Source of the DNA: a virus
Lineage: Duplodnaviria > Heunggongvirae > Uroviricota > Caudoviricetes
Strand: one strand, 5' to 3'
DNA: 4,078 bases
IMG/VR virus record: IMGVR_UViG_2711768074_000019
In this document: positions 1-4,078 of the stretch, one piece after another
How the letters are laid out: each line of letters begins with the position of its first letter
Position numbering within the stretch: the stretch's first letter is position 1
Translations under genes and position numbers: made by a program
The notes under the pieces: generated by a model
The model's input: only the letters and a program-made list of their open reading frames with translations
Database searches by the model: none
What the model was told of the DNA's origin: nothing

Positions 1-83
1 TAGTCATGTGGGATGGCTGGTTCAGACTTCAGGATATGGTTGAGGGTTACCTGGTGATGAAGTCTCTTGATCAGGAGATCTGA
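1..83 (+). CDS. IS4-family (IS50-like) transposase, C-terminal fragment; the 5' part lies outside the window
   Basis: Seen: in-frame codons from position 3 translate to VMWDGWFRLQDMVEGYLVMKSLDQEI, then stop. Recalled Tn5 Tnp tail ALWEGWEALQSKLDGFLAAKDLMAQGIKI aligns without gaps (W-[DE]-G-W, LQ, [DE]-G-[FY]-L, K-x-L, terminal I). Identity is only about 40 percent by eye. Confidence 0.65.
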   Translation, partial: VMWDGWFRLQDMVEGYLVMKSLDQEI

Positions 84-92
84 TCAAGAGAC
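62..92. repeat. Palindrome inside the IS end (13-bp arms 62..74 and 80..92, 5-nt centre) carrying three GATC Dam sites
   Basis: Seen: gtctcttgatcag / gagat / ctgatcaagagac, with GATC at 69..72, 77..80 and 82..85. The same structure is mirrored at 3985..4015. Knowledge: the IS50 inside end is regulated by Dam methylation of GATC sites. Confidence 0.6.
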
Positions 93-182
93 AGCCGCAC
101 AGGGGGATTCACCATGCCAGTTTCTTTTAACAAACTCCCCGCAAAACAGACAACTGTCAACCGTCTGAATTGTGAGACATTT

Positions 183-206
183 AAAAAAAAGCCCGCAAAA
201 GCGAGC
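183..206 (-). terminator. Rho-independent terminator closing the minus-strand tRNA transcription unit
   Basis: Seen: the minus-strand RNA reads GCUCGC-UUUU-GCGGGC (6-bp stem with one G.U pair, from 206..191) followed by eight U (complement of A183..A190). Confidence 0.7.
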
Positions 207-221
207 CAGGGAAAATAAGTG

Positions 222-298
222 TGGCGCGTTGTACTGGATTCGAACCAGTGACCGATTGCTTAGAAGGCAATTGCTCTGTCCGGCTGAGCTAACAACGC
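222..298 (-). tRNA. argO: tRNA-Arg (anticodon UCU)
   Basis: Seen: the reverse complement folds as a cloverleaf with acceptor stem GCGTTGT/ACAACGC, T-loop GGTTCGAATCC, anticodon loop CU-UCU-AA and a 3' GCCA. It closely resembles E. coli argU by eye. The symbol is assigned from its position in an ileZ-argN-argO-like cluster, not from a search. Confidence 0.8.
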
Positions 299-311
299 AG
301 GATACAGATAA

Positions 312-388
312 TGGACCGCCTTCGGGGACCCGAACTCCGCGCAACCAGCTTCGAAGGCTGGCGCTCTTTCCTGATGAGATAATGGCGG
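312..388 (-). tRNA. argN: tRNA-Arg (anticodon UCG), with an atypical T-arm
   Basis: Seen: acceptor stem CCGCCAT/AAGGCGG (one A-A mismatch), anticodon stem-loop CCAGC-CTTCGAA-GCTGG and a 3' TCCA. The T-loop is TTCGGGT (G where A58 is normally conserved) and the T-stem has one mismatch. The symbol is assigned from cluster order only. Confidence 0.65.
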
Positions 389-395
389 TATGTGA

Positions 396-471
396 TGGTG
401 GCCCTTGCTGGATTTGAACCAGCGACCTGGCGATTATGAGTCGCTCGCTCTCACCACTGAGCTAAAGGGCC
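396..471 (-). tRNA. ileZ: tRNA-Ile2 (anticodon CAU, lysidine type); formally tRNA-Met cannot be excluded
   Basis: Seen: GGCCCTTTAGCTCAGTGGTGAGAGCGAGCGACTCATAATCGCCAGGTCGCTGGTTCAAATCCAGCAAGGGCCACCA, with a perfect 7-bp acceptor stem and anticodon CAT. It is near-identical in layout to E. coli ileX/ileY as recalled. It is the first gene of the Ile-Arg-Arg cluster. Confidence 0.8.
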
Positions 472-480
472 GCGCGCAGA

Positions 481-510
481 ATAATAACGTTACGGAATTA
501 ATACTGCAAT
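481..510 (-). promoter_or_regulatory. Candidate sigma70 promoter for the tRNA cluster
   Basis: Seen on the minus strand: -35 TTGCAG (510..505), 18-bp spacer, -10 TATTAT (486..481), then a GC-rich discriminator (GCGCGC) about 9 nt before the tRNA-Ile 5' end. Inference only. Confidence 0.4.
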
Positions 511-520
511 CTCATCCGTT

Positions 521-1570
521 TCAAACGATTAAATCCTGAACTTCCCTGACTGTCTGCTCAAAACGTCCGGTCTCCAGCTCAACACCAATCGCACGACGCC
601 CCAGTGCCATCGCCGCTTTTACCGTTGAACCCGACCCCATGAAAAAATCCGCAACCAGATCACCAGGACGACTACTTGCGCTGATTATCTGCTGCAGCAT
701 TTCTGCCGGTTTTTCGCACGGATGTTTCCCTGGATAGTACTGCACCGGTTTATACGTCCACACATCGGTGTACGGCACCTGCACCGTCACACCGAAATAC
801 CGCCGCAAATTTTTATATTCACTCAGCAGTTCCATATACTGCCGGTTCAGCTCACTGTATGTGCTGACCAGCTGGTGGTGTGGCTTTTCCAGTTCCCCGC
901 GCTGATGTTTCTCTTCTGCCACCCGGGCAAACAACGCCTGCAATTTGTTGTAATCACCCTCGTTCGGTAACTGCCACTGACTGGTACCAAACCAGTGCGA
1001 AGCCATGTTTTTCTTTCCGGTGGCTTCCGCTATCTGTTTTGACGTTATTCCCAGTGATTTACGCGCATCACGAAAGTAAGAAATCAGCGGGGCCATGACG
1101 TGCTGTTTTAGCTCGCGCCCCTGTGCCACATAGCCATCATCTTTCGGGCGATACGGTCCCTGATAATGTTCTGCAAACAGAATGCGCTCTGTTGCCGGAA
1201 AATACGCCCGCAGACTTTCCTTATTGCACCCGTTCCAGCGTCCGGACGGCTTCGCCCAGATAATGTGGTTCAGCACATTAAAGCGCTCACGCATCATGAT
1301 TTCGGTGTCAGATGCCAGGCGATGACCACAGAACAGGTAAAAACTTCCGGCAGGCTTCAGTACCCGCCAGAACTGCGCCAGACACTGGTCCAGCCATTTC
1401 AGGTAATCATCGTCGCCCTCCCACTGGTTATCCCAGCCCTCGGGCTTCACTTTAAAGTATGGCGGGTCTGTGACTATCAGATCGACAGAGTTTTCCGGTA
1501 AGGTCTGGATAAATTCCAGGCAATCAGCGTTGATTAACTCACAACTGGATATTTTTACAGTATTAGCCAT
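521..1570 (-). CDS. Beta-class DNA amino-methyltransferase (N6-adenine or N4-cytosine), orphan within this window
   Basis: Seen in the 349-aa ORF: N-terminal DLIVTDPPY (motif IV), HPCEKP, and C-terminal DLVADFFMGSGST (FxGxG AdoMet motif I). Motif IV before motif I is the beta-class order. The central region carries an HTH-like LGITSKQIAEATGK. No endonuclease gene is nearby. Confidence 0.85.
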   Translation of the reverse strand: MANTVKISSCELINADCLEFIQTLPENSVDLIVTDPPYFKVKPEGWDNQWEGDDDYLKWLDQCLAQFWRVLKPAGSFYLFCGHRLASDTEIMMRERFNVLNHIIWAKPSGRWNGCNKESLRAYFPATERILFAEHYQGPYRPKDDGYVAQGRELKQHVMAPLISYFRDARKSLGITSKQIAEATGKKNMASHWFGTSQWQLPNEGDYNKLQALFARVAEEKHQRGELEKPHHQLVSTYSELNRQYMELLSEYKNLRRYFGVTVQVPYTDVWTYKPVQYYPGKHPCEKPAEMLQQIISASSRPGDLVADFFMGSGSTVKAAMALGRRAIGVELETGRFEQTVREVQDLIV

Positions 1571-1711
1571 AGATCAATAAGCACTTCTCTGATAGGCTCA
1601 TACCGCTTTTGCGCAAAGCAGATGGGCCTGAGGTTTGCTTGTGACCCCAACGCATGAGCAGATGGCTGGCAGGTGCCGCTAACACCCACCAGCCGCCCAT
1701 TACCACAAATT

Positions 1712-1733
1712 AAAAAACCTTCACTGAGGAAGG
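1712..1733 (-). terminator. Weak hairpin plus U-run overlapping the stop codon of the small HTH ORF; possible attenuator or weak terminator
   Basis: Seen: a 5-bp stem CCTTC/GAAGG (1718..1722 with 1729..1733) and a 6-nt loop. On the minus-strand RNA it is followed by six U (complement of A1712..A1717). The stem is short, so this is weak. Confidence 0.3.
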
Positions 1734-1918
1734 CGTCTGTAACAACCGAACTGATAATCTGCCAGACCCGCCATAACAAGCTGAGTCAGTATTAACTGGC
1801 AGCGTTCGCGTGAAAGGTAAGTATTCTGCGCAATTTCCCCGACGGTCGCCGGTTCGGTGACGCTTAATTCATTAAACACCACTCTGGCGGTTTCGGTCAT
1901 ATCCTGCTGTTTTAGCAT
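1721..1918 (-). CDS. Small hypothetical protein (65 aa) with a predicted helix-turn-helix
   Basis: Seen: internal ATG at 1918..1916 preceded by AAGGG about 8 nt upstream. Product MLKQQDMTETARVVFNELSVTEPATVGEIAQNTYLSRERCQLILTQLVMAGLADYQFGCYRRLPQ. The segment ATVGEIAQNTYLSRERCQLILTQL looks like an HTH; this is inference from the pattern. The longer track ORF (to 2041) starts at GTG directly against the terminator and is less plausible. Confidence 0.45.
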   Translation of the reverse strand: MLKQQDMTETARVVFNELSVTEPATVGEIAQNTYLSRERCQLILTQLVMAGLADYQFGCYRRLPQ

Positions 1919-2041
1919 GCCTTTTTCCCTTTTCCGGTTAACGTGACATACCAATACCTCTTGTCGAAAAAGCCAGCAAGCTGAAAGACCGGCATTCGCA
2001 ACCACCAGCGCATTTAACGTCCTGTACCGCTTTTCGGGCAC

Positions 2042-2069
2042 AAAAAAACCCGCATAAAGCGGGTTCTTT
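2042..2069 (-). terminator. Strong intrinsic terminator (hairpin usable on both strands) about 85 nt downstream of the Q-like gene; tR'-like
   Basis: Seen: stem CCCGC/GCGGG (2049..2053 with 2059..2063, extendable by two A-T pairs) and loop ATAAA. The minus-strand RNA is followed by seven U (A2042..A2048); the plus strand is followed by TTCTTT. Confidence 0.75.
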
Positions 2070-2153
2070 CAGGTGTCCATGTCTGCTATTCGCCTCGCGG
2101 TATAGCTTTGCGAAGCGTAGCTGGATTGAAACAGTTTATGCGTAAAAAATCAA
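2070..2153 (-). promoter_or_regulatory. Candidate late promoter and Q-utilisation region (pR'-like) between the Q-like stop and the terminator
   Basis: Seen: a weak candidate -35 TTGATT (2153..2148, overlapping the stop codon), 17-bp spacer, -10 TTCAAT (2130..2125). This -10 lacks the conserved A at position 2. Placed mainly by analogy to the lambdoid Q-pR'-tR' layout. Confidence 0.3.
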
Positions 2154-2704
2154 GACATTTTTTGAGCAAACGATTCTCGCATAGGGATGTATAGCGCATA
2201 TTCAGCAACAGCCAACCAATTAGCAATTCGCTTTTCGCATGTACTAAAACACCATTCCGGGTGCACCTCATTCAACAATTCAGCCATTTTGCGTTTACTC
2301 ATCCCCCGCCCTTCGTATCTTTGCCGCAGGATATCAATCAATCCAGGATAACGTGCAAGCGCTTTACTTATCACCCCATCAATGCGTAACGCCTCTGCAT
2401 CAGTACAGTGAGACAACCAGCTCTTCTGTCTGCCAGCGATCATCTCTCGCAAGAATGCTTCCAGCTCTGGTTTATCAATCCCTGACTCCCTGATTCTACG
2501 CAGGGCTTCATTGATCGCGGTTTTTGTCAGTTTTTTGGATGTCAGCAACTGATTGAACATATTTCCTGGTTTGCCACCACCTATGTACGACCAACGCCCC
2601 CACATCCGTAATTTCCCCTGGATCCAGACGGCTTCCAGCGTTTTTAGACGTAAATGCTCGCCGCTTTTGCCTGTAATTTCCGGGTATATCATATTTACGA
2701 TCAC
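2150..2704 (-). CDS. Putative late-gene antiterminator Q-like protein
   Basis: Seen: a 184-aa ORF starting at GTG 2704..2702, which overlaps the RusA stop (GTGA); an alternative ATG lies at 2692..2690. It contains LRMWGRW, reminiscent of the L-x-R-W-G-x-W N-terminal motif I recall in phage 82-type Q. Synteny also fits: RusA then Q, as in DLP12 and phage 82, followed about 90 nt later by a strong terminator. No domain search was run. Confidence 0.5.
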   Translation of the reverse strand: MIVNMIYPEITGKSGEHLRLKTLEAVWIQGKLRMWGRWSYIGGGKPGNMFNQLLTSKKLTKTAINEALRRIRESGIDKPELEAFLREMIAGRQKSWLSHCTDAEALRIDGVISKALARYPGLIDILRQRYEGRGMSKRKMAELLNEVHPEWCFSTCEKRIANWLAVAEYALYIPMRESFAQKMS

Positions 2705-3060
2705 TCACTCTCAATTTTGTAAATCTTCACGCCCAGCCGCCCCCCAGGAACGAGCTGACCGCGCACAATATTAATTTCATCAAACTGCTCGTCGTCTATG
2801 AGAAGTCCGGCATGCGTCAGCGCATCCAGTGGTGCTTTCAGGATATTGTCCAGGTCACGACGACGCTTATCCGGTGGCTCTGCAATAATCTTTATCGCCA
2901 GCCGTCCGGACAGGTTTAATTTCAGCCGCTGCTCGCGAACAATTAGCGCCACATCCCGGCGATAACGCTCACCGGCTTTTGATACAAAATATGTGTTGTC
3001 ACGACGTCGCCAGTAGGTGTTCACCGTTGGCGGGTAAGGCAAAACAAACTCTATACGCAT
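2701..3060 (-). CDS. rusA: Holliday-junction resolvase RusA (crossover junction endodeoxyribonuclease)
   Basis: Seen: 119 aa with LPYPPTVNTYW, DKRRRDLDNILKAPLDALTHAGLLIDDEQ and GGRL, matching the RusA signature and its acidic catalytic residues. SD AAGAGG lies 6 nt upstream of ATG 3060..3058. Confidence 0.9.
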   Translation of the reverse strand: MRIEFVLPYPPTVNTYWRRRDNTYFVSKAGERYRRDVALIVREQRLKLNLSGRLAIKIIAEPPDKRRRDLDNILKAPLDALTHAGLLIDDEQFDEINIVRGQLVPGGRLGVKIYKIESE

Positions 3061-3072
3061 CAGTAACCTCTT

Positions 3073-3978
3073 TTACCCAAGCACGCCGGTTGCAAAGGCG
3101 TGATCAAGAAAATGAAAAATTAAATCAACCTGGGAACCATGCTTTTCTTCGAATGCCAGCGGATCCGCATGAAGCTCGTTGTGATGTTCCCGACACAGCG
3201 GTAGTGTGAAAATATCGTGGGATTTTGTTCCCATTCCACCCTGACCGTGGCCTATCAGGTGGTGGGCATCATCAGCAGGCTTTCCGCAACATGCGCACGG
3301 CTGCGTCTTAACCCAGCGCGTGTACTTTTCATTAACCCAGCGGCGACGTTTTGGGCGTAACATAAAAGACTCCGGCGACTCCGGATCCACTTTCAGCGCC
3401 AGCACCTTTTTCGCCTTATCCTGGATGATGCTGGTGGCAGGAACCGAAGGCACAAGGTCACTTTCCCGGGTAACAGACGGCACAACAGGCTTCGGTAATC
3501 TCAGTGCCTTACGGGCTGCACTTTCCGATAAGGCATCCGCCAGATCATTACGAATCAGCCACCAGCACAGTTCCGGCATTGTCACAACGTGACTGTCGTC
3601 AAAACCGAGCTCCCGACGCACAACAGACAACACCCAGCGGGCACAGTTATCCGTTGCCATTGATTCCAGCCGTTCCGTGAACTGATCGCGCAGCTGGTTA
3701 TCGCAGTGCCAGCACAGACGGATTGCGCCCGGAGCGTGTCGCATTGTGGTCATGTTCTCGCTGTGCCAGTTGGAATGAGGCCACTGACAGCCCTTTTCAC
3801 GAAGTAACCAGCTTTCAAGACATTCCACGCCACCAGCACGACGGATCACTGCCTCATTGCGGAACACGGCCCGAACGGCAGGATCATCCGCCAGCGGTTG
3901 TGATGCCGCCGGAACGGCACCACTGGCAAAAGATGAATAACGTTCCGGCTCAGGCTCCAGCAGGACACGCCCCTGCAT
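3073..3978 (-). CDS. DUF968 / YdfU-like prophage protein with a C-terminal HNH-like zinc-binding nuclease domain; possibly N-terminally truncated by the IS
   Basis: Seen: 301 aa. The C-terminus PCACCGKPADDAHHLIGHGQGGMGTKSHDIFTLPLCREHHNELH has the Cys/His spacing and G-x-GTK element of HNH-like prophage nucleases (compare DLP12 YbcO as recalled). The ATG at 3978..3976 is only 5 bp from the IS end. Confidence 0.55.
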   Translation of the reverse strand: MQGRVLLEPEPERYSSFASGAVPAASQPLADDPAVRAVFRNEAVIRRAGGVECLESWLLREKGCQWPHSNWHSENMTTMRHAPGAIRLCWHCDNQLRDQFTERLESMATDNCARWVLSVVRRELGFDDSHVVTMPELCWWLIRNDLADALSESAARKALRLPKPVVPSVTRESDLVPSVPATSIIQDKAKKVLALKVDPESPESFMLRPKRRRWVNEKYTRWVKTQPCACCGKPADDAHHLIGHGQGGMGTKSHDIFTLPLCREHHNELHADPLAFEEKHGSQVDLIFHFLDHAFATGVLG

Positions 3979-3982
3979 AAAC

Positions 3983-4078
3983 CTGTCTCTTGATCAGATC
4001 TCCTGATCAAGAGACTTCATCACCAGGTAACCCTCAACCATATCCTGAAGTCTGAACCAGCCATCCCACATGACTACC
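3983..4078 (-). mobile_element. Second, inverted copy of the IS50-like inner end; transposase on the minus strand, again reading towards the cargo
   Basis: Seen: 3983..4076 is the exact reverse complement of 1..94. It begins CTGTCTCTTGATCAGATCT at 3983..4001 and runs off the window edge. Confidence 0.75.
3994..4078 (-). CDS. IS4-family (IS50-like) transposase, C-terminal fragment (second copy)
   Basis: Mirror image of feature 1..83, with stop codon TGA at 3996..3994 on the minus strand. Confidence 0.65.
   Translation of the reverse strand, partial: VVMWDGWFRLQDMVEGYLVMKSLDQEI

Follow-up and report, generated by a model that had tools for sequence, protein, structure and literature searches.

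Both ends of the DNA analyzed here, a 4,078-nt stretch of the IMG/VR virus record IMGVR_UViG_2711768074_000019 (referred to as the window), are very probably the right termini of the insertion sequence ISEc13, two copies of which were inserted independently of each other into a lambdoid prophage; this is the best explanation of the observations as a whole. ISEc13, a catalogued element of 1,550 bp, can be assigned to the IS4 family, IS50 subgroup. The tips of the window represent a perfect inverted repeat (positions 1-94 versus 3983-4076, 94 nt, 100% complementary), and the 3,888 bp between them (95-3982) constitute a lambdoid prophage segment enclosed by two inward-facing ISEc13 copies (Table 1). 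This segment was found to be collinear with, and 99.9% identical to, a prophage of E. coli O55:H7 RM12579 (L001), the match stopping exactly at the boundaries of the arms. The initial annotation covered the left arm alone; the same end recurs in inverted orientation at positions 3983-4078. From other loci, we infer that both copies are full-length and intact, the window itself showing 94 and 96 nt of them.

Table 1. Coordinates of the ISEc13 termini, target duplications and prophage genes in the window.
Feature	Position	Strand	Remarks
ISEc13 copy A, last 94 nt, IE-side end	1..94	+	100% to E2348/69 ISEc13 3' end; remainder off-window leftward
ISEc13 transposase, last 26 codons + TGA (VMWDGWFRLQDMVEGYLVMKSLDQEI*)	3..83	+	matches WP_000244363.1 C-terminus (457 aa)
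Perfect palindrome, 13-bp arms, 5-nt spacer	62..92	.	GATC at 69, 77, 82
19-bp terminal putative transposase-binding sequence	76..94	-	equals IS50 inside end; contains GATC at 77, 82 and the tnp stop
CCGCACAG, inner copy of the copy A 8-bp target duplication	95..102	.	site GCCCCT-CCGCACAG-GGGGAT
tRNA-Arg(UCU)	222-298	-	ARAGORN
tRNA-Arg(UCG)	312-388	-	ARAGORN
tRNA(CAU)	396-471	-	ARAGORN
N6/N4 DNA methylase	521-1570	-	Pfam
DUF1133/Q-like antiterminator	2150-2704	-	Pfam
RusA	2701-3060	-	Pfam
DUF968 gene, 5'-truncated by the right arm	3073-3978	-	Pfam
GCATAAAC, inner copy of the copy B 8-bp target duplication	3975..3982	.	site GCCCCT-GCATAAAC-AGGGGC, inside DUF968 gene
ISEc13 copy B, last 96 nt, inverted relative to copy A	3983..4078	-	IE-side end inward; reverse complement equals ISEc13 last 96 nt
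GATC sites in copy B arm	3992, 3997, 4005		

The Arg(UCU)/Arg(UCG)/CAU trio of the prophage segment represents a rare-codon tRNA set, as is typical of Stx-type lambdoid phages. The CAU tRNA was called tRNA-Met by ARAGORN, and its O55:H7 counterpart is listed as tRNA-Ile in RefSeq, a Met/Ile discrepancy representing the usual ambiguity of lysidine-modified ileX/ileZ-type tRNAs. The DUF968/HNH-like gene is interrupted by the right IS copy 80 nt into its sequence; its ORF in the window comprises 301 aa counted from an internal ATG, and the intact O55:H7 protein 329 aa.

The 94 nt of the left arm were found to be 100% identical to RefSeq copies annotated as 'IS4-like element ISEc13 family transposase'. 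Hundreds of ISEc13-annotated copies match at this level, and a match was detected in 2,464 out of the 5,426 complete E. coli genomes, with approximately 30 matches in the EPEC strain E2348/69 (O127:H6). A complete copy of this strain is located between mog and satP (L002 1545-3094, 1,550 bp) and features the transposase CDS at 1710-3083, an intact ORF of 457 aa (WP_000244363.1); further 1,550-bp copies are 98-99.9% identical. The name ISEc13 as applied here rests on RefSeq/PGAP annotation and on literature usage rather than on an ISfinder reference sequence, and it is in use as a standard annotation name (PMC9837563, PMC4764695). No experimental study of ISEc13 was found in the literature searched, in which the element is mentioned in annotation lists only. 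The IS50 subgroup has been defined by a single-ORF DDE transposase with the motif Y-(2)-R-(3)-E-(6)-K and, in Table 1 of the same work, by 5'-CT termini, a length of 1,350-1,550 bp and direct repeats of 8-9 bp (PMC2266710). In ISEc13, both ends start with CTGTCTCTT..., the length is 1,550 bp, and target-site duplications of 8 bp were found at seven independent sites. Identity values of 52.6% for the whole element (DNA) and 42.4% for the whole protein set it apart from IS50 itself.

The ISEc13 transposase was matched to the PDB entries 1MUH, 1MUS and 4DM0 with E = 7e-83 over residues 6-453. The Pfam domains Tnp_DNA_bind and DDE_Tnp_1 scored above their cut-offs, Dimer_Tnp_Tn5 reached 24.1 bits, just under its cut-off of 26.7 bits, and the NCBIfam model for IS4 family transposases scored 511 bits. 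The overall identity of 42.4% to the Tn5 transposase comprises 56% for the N-terminal DNA-binding domain and approximately 40% for the remainder. Residues D93/D193/E323 of ISEc13 align to D97/D188/E326 of Tn5, and Y316/R319/E323/K330 to the YREK residues Y319/R322/E326/K333; W298, R26/R27/R30/R62 and S438/K439 (Tn5 numbering), together with the DSKRTG segment, are all conserved. M56, the start of the Tn5 inhibitor, corresponds to Q52 in ISEc13. An internal start of the Inh type was therefore rejected for ISEc13, the next in-frame ATG being codon 127. The missing methionine indicates that regulation differs from that of IS50 at least in part.

For comparison of the ends, an IS50 copy adjacent to aph(3')-IIa/ble/aph(6)-Ic on plasmid NZ_LT985287 (L004 2385-3918) served as the reference Tn5; its tips carry the textbook OE and IE 19-mers (2385-2403 and 3900-3918, respectively). 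Window positions 94 to 76, read from outside, correspond to CTGTCTCTTGATCAGATCT and are identical to the IE of this element in 19 out of 19 positions. Inside base 19, the identity between ISEc13 and IS50 is at chance level (next 30 bases of the end alignment). Frame 3 of the window encodes VMWDGWFRLQDMVEGYLVMKSLDQEI, followed by a stop codon at 81-83, and this tail shares nine of 23 aligned positions (39%) with the last 26 residues of the Tn5 transposase, its helix (window 3-80) aligning to the Tn5 dimerisation helix. The initial annotation, which had recognized the IS50 inside end in the terminal 19 bp, a tail about 40% identical to that of the Tn5 transposase and a divergence of the DNA right inside the 19-mer, is borne out in these respects, as is its view of a distinct IS50 relative combining a conserved end with a diverged transposase.

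Scanning of IMG/VR with the bare 19-mer revealed a third lineage with an identical IE (L084), whose transposase shares 56% identity with that of ISEc13 and 47% with that of Tn5. This element is encoded on the minus strand of IMGVR_UViG_2639762814_000006, where its IS end is located at position 4763 of the reverse complement; its transposase comprises 460 aa and belongs to the IS50 subgroup. In every lineage compared (ISEc13, IS50 and L084), the 19-mer includes the final Ile codon of the transposase gene together with its stop codon. Since L084 ends in the same 19-mer despite protein identities of only 56% and 47%, the 19-mer is an old and strongly constrained trait of the IS50-type clade. Such a constraint fits a role as the putative transposase-binding site. 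The inside end of IS50 has accordingly been kept base for base across lineages whose transposases are 42-56% identical. In a further contig, L071, the same 19-bp IE was found beside a disrupted ORF and an inner palindrome arm preserved in 11 of 13 positions.

At the opposite end, the left tip of ISEc13 (L002 1545-1563) reads CTGTCTCTTATACACAAAT and matches the OE of IS50 in 17 out of 19 positions, which answers in the affirmative the question raised in the initial annotation whether the outside end is OE-like. Compared to the engineered hyperactive mosaic end of Tn5, the first 16 bases of CTGTCTCTTATACACAAAT are identical (17/19 overall), suggesting that the Tn5 transposase may recognize both ends of ISEc13. 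The outside-type end carries the IE-type T at position 4. A perfect palindrome also overlaps the 19-mer at this end (L002 1557-1582, IS positions 13-38; CACAAATCCCC-ACCC-GGGGATTTGTG, 11-bp arms). It lies within a stretch of approximately 62 bp that the shorter relatives in Pantoea and Scandinavium (1,485-1,488 bp) lack, and its core CCCC...GGGGAT resembles the target motif of ISEc13 itself. Dam also controls IS50 through a GATC site overlapping the tnp promoter. In ISEc13, a GATC site is located at IS position 130, 32 nt upstream of the tnp ATG; a consensus scan of the element revealed no sigma-70-like promoter at the left end.

By analogy with Tn5/IS50, transposition of ISEc13 may be envisaged as follows: the N-terminal domain of the transposase would bind each 19-bp end, two end-bound monomers would synapse via the C-terminal helix encoded at window positions 3-80, the DDE site would excise the element through DNA hairpin intermediates, and the excised element would be pasted into a dyad-symmetric target.

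Two GATC sites (77-80 and 82-85) are situated inside 76-94, placed as in the IS50 IE. In IS50, methylation of the GATC sites in the IE is known to reduce binding of the transposase. The DNA-binding residues are conserved in the ISEc13 transposase. Given the complete identity between the 19-mer and the IE of IS50, Dam control of the inside-type end of ISEc13 is plausible; Dam methylation of the two GATC sites would then lower the use of this end. The methylase gene of the prophage segment encodes a DPPY motif and sits between two GATC-bearing IS ends. If the specificity of this methylase is GATC, the cargo could itself modulate the usage of the flanking ends.

The three GATC sites and the palindrome with 13-bp arms described in the initial annotation were recovered exactly (69, 77 and 82 in 62-74/80-92). 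The arms are 100% complementary, and the outer arm corresponds to bases 3-15 of the ISEc13 right end. As RNA, the region folds with -31.5 kcal/mol (z = -4.98 versus shuffled sequences), the 13-bp stem enclosing the stop codon. Relatives from Scandinavium and Pantoea, with an overall identity of only 72-74%, retain the palindrome without any change; the unchanged bases include ten that were unforced by the search pattern, and divergence resumes immediately upstream. The inner arm is degraded in L071 (11/13) and L084 (approximately 8/13), and the palindrome is absent in IS50. These comparisons point to the palindrome as an add-on to the end that is specific for the ISEc13 lineage. A requirement of the palindrome for IE recognition was rejected, because IS50, L071 and L084 feature the 19-mer without an intact palindrome. 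A function as a classical intrinsic terminator is unlikely, since only 2 nt of the IS follow the stem and the flanks preferred by the element are rich in G instead of T. Our best guess, held weakly, is that the palindrome may represent a 3' stabilizing stem-loop on the tnp mRNA or a transcription barrier.

In both copies at the ends of the window, the 3' end of the transposase gene faces the central segment, as in the geometry of Tn5. The left junction was also found in a prophage of E2348/69 (L003), where a complete IS is bordered by CCGCACAG on both sides, and the corresponding empty site is present in O55:H7 (L001 ~4001; ~3995-4015). Likewise, the right junction is joined to a complete IS with GTTTATGC (reverse complement of GCATAAAC) on both sides in the IMG/VR contig L066, and its empty site is the uninterrupted DUF968 sequence of O55:H7 (L001 7858-7900). 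A search of the 5,426 complete E. coli genomes yielded no instance of the right junction; in IMG/VR, six contigs contain it. A second assembly (L065, IMGVR_UViG_2648501110_000014, 4,071 bp, 99.9%) features two IS copies in the same arrangement; each of its ends reaches 90-93 nt into the IS, the window ending 94 and 96 nt in. In appearance, the window corresponds to an entire short-read contig whose borders are formed by a collapsed IS repeat. Two independent simple insertions in place and in opposite orientation would be the simplest history, because both sites are contiguous in the uninterrupted prophage and each IS is found alone with its own 8-bp duplication; the in-situ double insertion in this particular genome was deduced from collinearity and from relatives carrying a single IS.

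The same junctions were also observed beside diverged flanks. In UTI89 (L005 3517-5055), the left junction is located beside the iroBC salmochelin locus, where a tRNA-Arg gene adjoins the surrounding prophage remnant; the IS present at this position in ExPEC strains of the UTI89 type is frameshifted and 97% identical. The IS-plus-flank junction of UTI89 is 87.7% identical, compared to approximately 97% for the IS alone, the flanks being more diverged than the IS. Five IMG/VR prophages (within L062-L067) carry the right junction in a DUF968 allele that is only 94% identical, and an IS that is 99.9-100% identical. Recurrent insertion into a hot spot would explain these junctions; alternatively, they may represent old inherited insertions with later homogenisation of the IS. 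The pMAR2 plasmid of E2348/69 carries an intact ISEc13 between hok and finO (L008 345-1894) that is flanked by TGCAAGGA and GTCATACA. This copy lacks a target duplication, which suggests IS-mediated deletion or recombination between two copies.

The identity of the arms could, in principle, be read differently. The tail identity of approximately 40% to the Tn5 transposase, the end of DNA similarity to IS50 after 19 bp and the fact that no experimental work on ISEc13 was found in the literature searched would suit an uncharacterised and uncatalogued element of the IS50 group, as proposed in the initial annotation. Such an element is, however, hardly credible in view of the 100% match to hundreds of ISEc13-annotated copies, the presence in 2,464 out of 5,426 genomes and a name in routine use. 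The claim of novelty fails because the 94 nt exactly match a catalogued IS, an outcome that the initial annotation had itself named as refuting; the attribute 'uncharacterised' holds with regard to experimental study in the literature searched, whereas the element as such is catalogued and named. The inside end (19/19) and the outside end (17/19) would also be expected of IS50/Tn5 itself, or of a recent IS50 derivative or hybrid with a borrowed IS50 end. This origin may be considered practically negligible, as identity amounts to 52.6% on the DNA and 42.4% on the protein level, no homology is present beside the 19-mer that could mediate an exchange, and L084 shares the same 19-mer, so that the end is to be regarded as an old trait of the clade.

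The arrangement of the two copies leaves somewhat more room for debate. With OE-type ends pointing outward, IE-type ends pointing inward and two IS copies bracketing 3,888 bp, the geometry is exactly that of Tn5; it was found in two assemblies (the window and L065), and two opposed ISEc13 copies are known to flank blaIMI-3 on an Enterobacter plasmid (PMC4764695). All this would be compatible with a Tn5-like composite transposon of approximately 7 kb that moved, or can move, together with the tRNA, methylase, Q-like and RusA genes. Nevertheless, both junctions are contiguous in the uninterrupted prophage, L003 and L066 each show a single IS at the respective site, bordered by a separate 8-bp duplication, and the unit was not found in a different context, the right junction being detected in 0 out of 5,426 complete genomes, which makes a composite transposon quite unlikely. 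It is likewise improbable, if slightly less so, that the arms are an assembly by-product, namely a contig stopping in a collapsed repeat, with two full IS copies per molecule not being implied. The window breaks off after 94 and 96 nt of the IS, L065 does likewise, and the scans revealed several further contigs with breaks after 75-98 nt of the IS; however, longer records (L003, L066) show a complete IS at each junction, and a contig with one and the same repeat at both of its borders is to be expected from two flanking copies. In any case, an assembly effect bears on the completeness of the copies and not on the identity of the element.

Duplications of 8 bp were observed at seven independent intact copies, and a 9-bp duplication as in IS50 was rejected on this basis. 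Every duplication site represents a GC-rich dyad of the form CCCCY-duplication-RGGGG, and both sites of the window fit this pattern. The flank sample comprised 58 unique sequences adjoining the IE side, taken from E. coli, from prophages in IMG/VR and from a dozen further genera of Enterobacterales. GGG was present at +9 to +16 in 50 out of the 58 flanks, compared to 6.3% at random positions of the same loci, and G occupied position +13 in an equal number (50/58). Many of the insertion sites are located between convergent genes. Only the C-left/G-right class of dyad was represented among the sites, which favors sequence recognition over mere hairpin potential. Longer duplications were also encountered, namely 11 bp (CCCGGTAGGTG) in E. 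coli DCE7 at ggt/yhhY (L012 345-1894) and 10 bp (CCGTAAGCAC) in Pantoea sp. B9002 (L031 2648-4132); both are still positioned between C-rich and G-rich arms, suggesting that the distance between the cuts may be set by the palindrome arms and not fixed at 8 bp.

Tentatively, and with slightly less than even confidence, we propose that ISEc13-type transposases are dyad-target specialists inserting at the center of CCCCY-N8-RGGGG palindromes in E. coli and at least a dozen further Enterobacterales genera, with a specificity so tight that diverged prophages and a UPEC island have received, or kept, insertions at the two prophage positions occupied in the window. The targets may be terminator-like or REP-like hairpins or chance matches within genes, the duplication usually being 8 bp. 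A preference of this kind would explain both the location of ISEc13 between convergent genes and the recurrence of the same sites. No description of palindrome targeting by ISEc13 was found in the literature searched; ISfinder may already record one.

Overall, the element identified at the tips of the window is an ordinary and already known one, named but experimentally unstudied in the literature found. The value beyond the known element is modest and lies in the target-site rule and in the Tn5-like arrangement around a prophage regulatory module. The two inverted copies in the prophage form a Tn5-like unit around the late-regulation module, and inverted repeats of 1.55 kb could invert this module. 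Furthermore, the conservation of the IE together with the match to the mosaic end implies that sequences expected to be recognized by Tn5-type transposases are present in many wild E. coli genomes, a point that bears on cross-mobilisation and on how Tn5-based tools are interpreted.

Compared to ISEc13 of E2348/69, the window agrees in the tail peptide, the palindrome, the GATC sites, the 19-mer and the left junction; relative to ISEc13 elsewhere, it differs only in its context, namely the second, inverted copy in the DUF968 gene. The resemblance to IS50/Tn5 (1MUH) comprises the IE (19/19), the OE (17/19), the domain order, the DDE and YREK residues, W298, the DSKRTG segment and a stop codon equally placed inside the end (ATC TGA + 11 nt). 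On the other hand, ISEc13 differs from IS50 in length (1,550 bp versus 1,534 bp), in sequence (42% protein and 53% DNA identity), in the target duplication (8 bp versus 9 bp), in the perfect palindromes overlapping both of its ends and in the lack of a Met at the Inh start. Tn5, too, is known to insert into palindromic targets. The Tn5 consensus, reportedly determined by Goryshin et al. 1998, is A-GNTYWRANC-T, in contrast to CCCCY-N8-RGGGG for ISEc13. Insertion sequences targeting REP elements or other palindromes include IS1397, ISKpn1, IS621 and ISRm22 (PMC1525189). They resemble ISEc13 in inserting at the center of GC-rich extragenic palindromes, often between convergent genes, but belong to other families or subgroups (IS3, IS110 and IS4Sa) and recognize specific REP families, whereas ISEc13 also enters chance matches of its motif in coding sequences, such as the DUF968 site.
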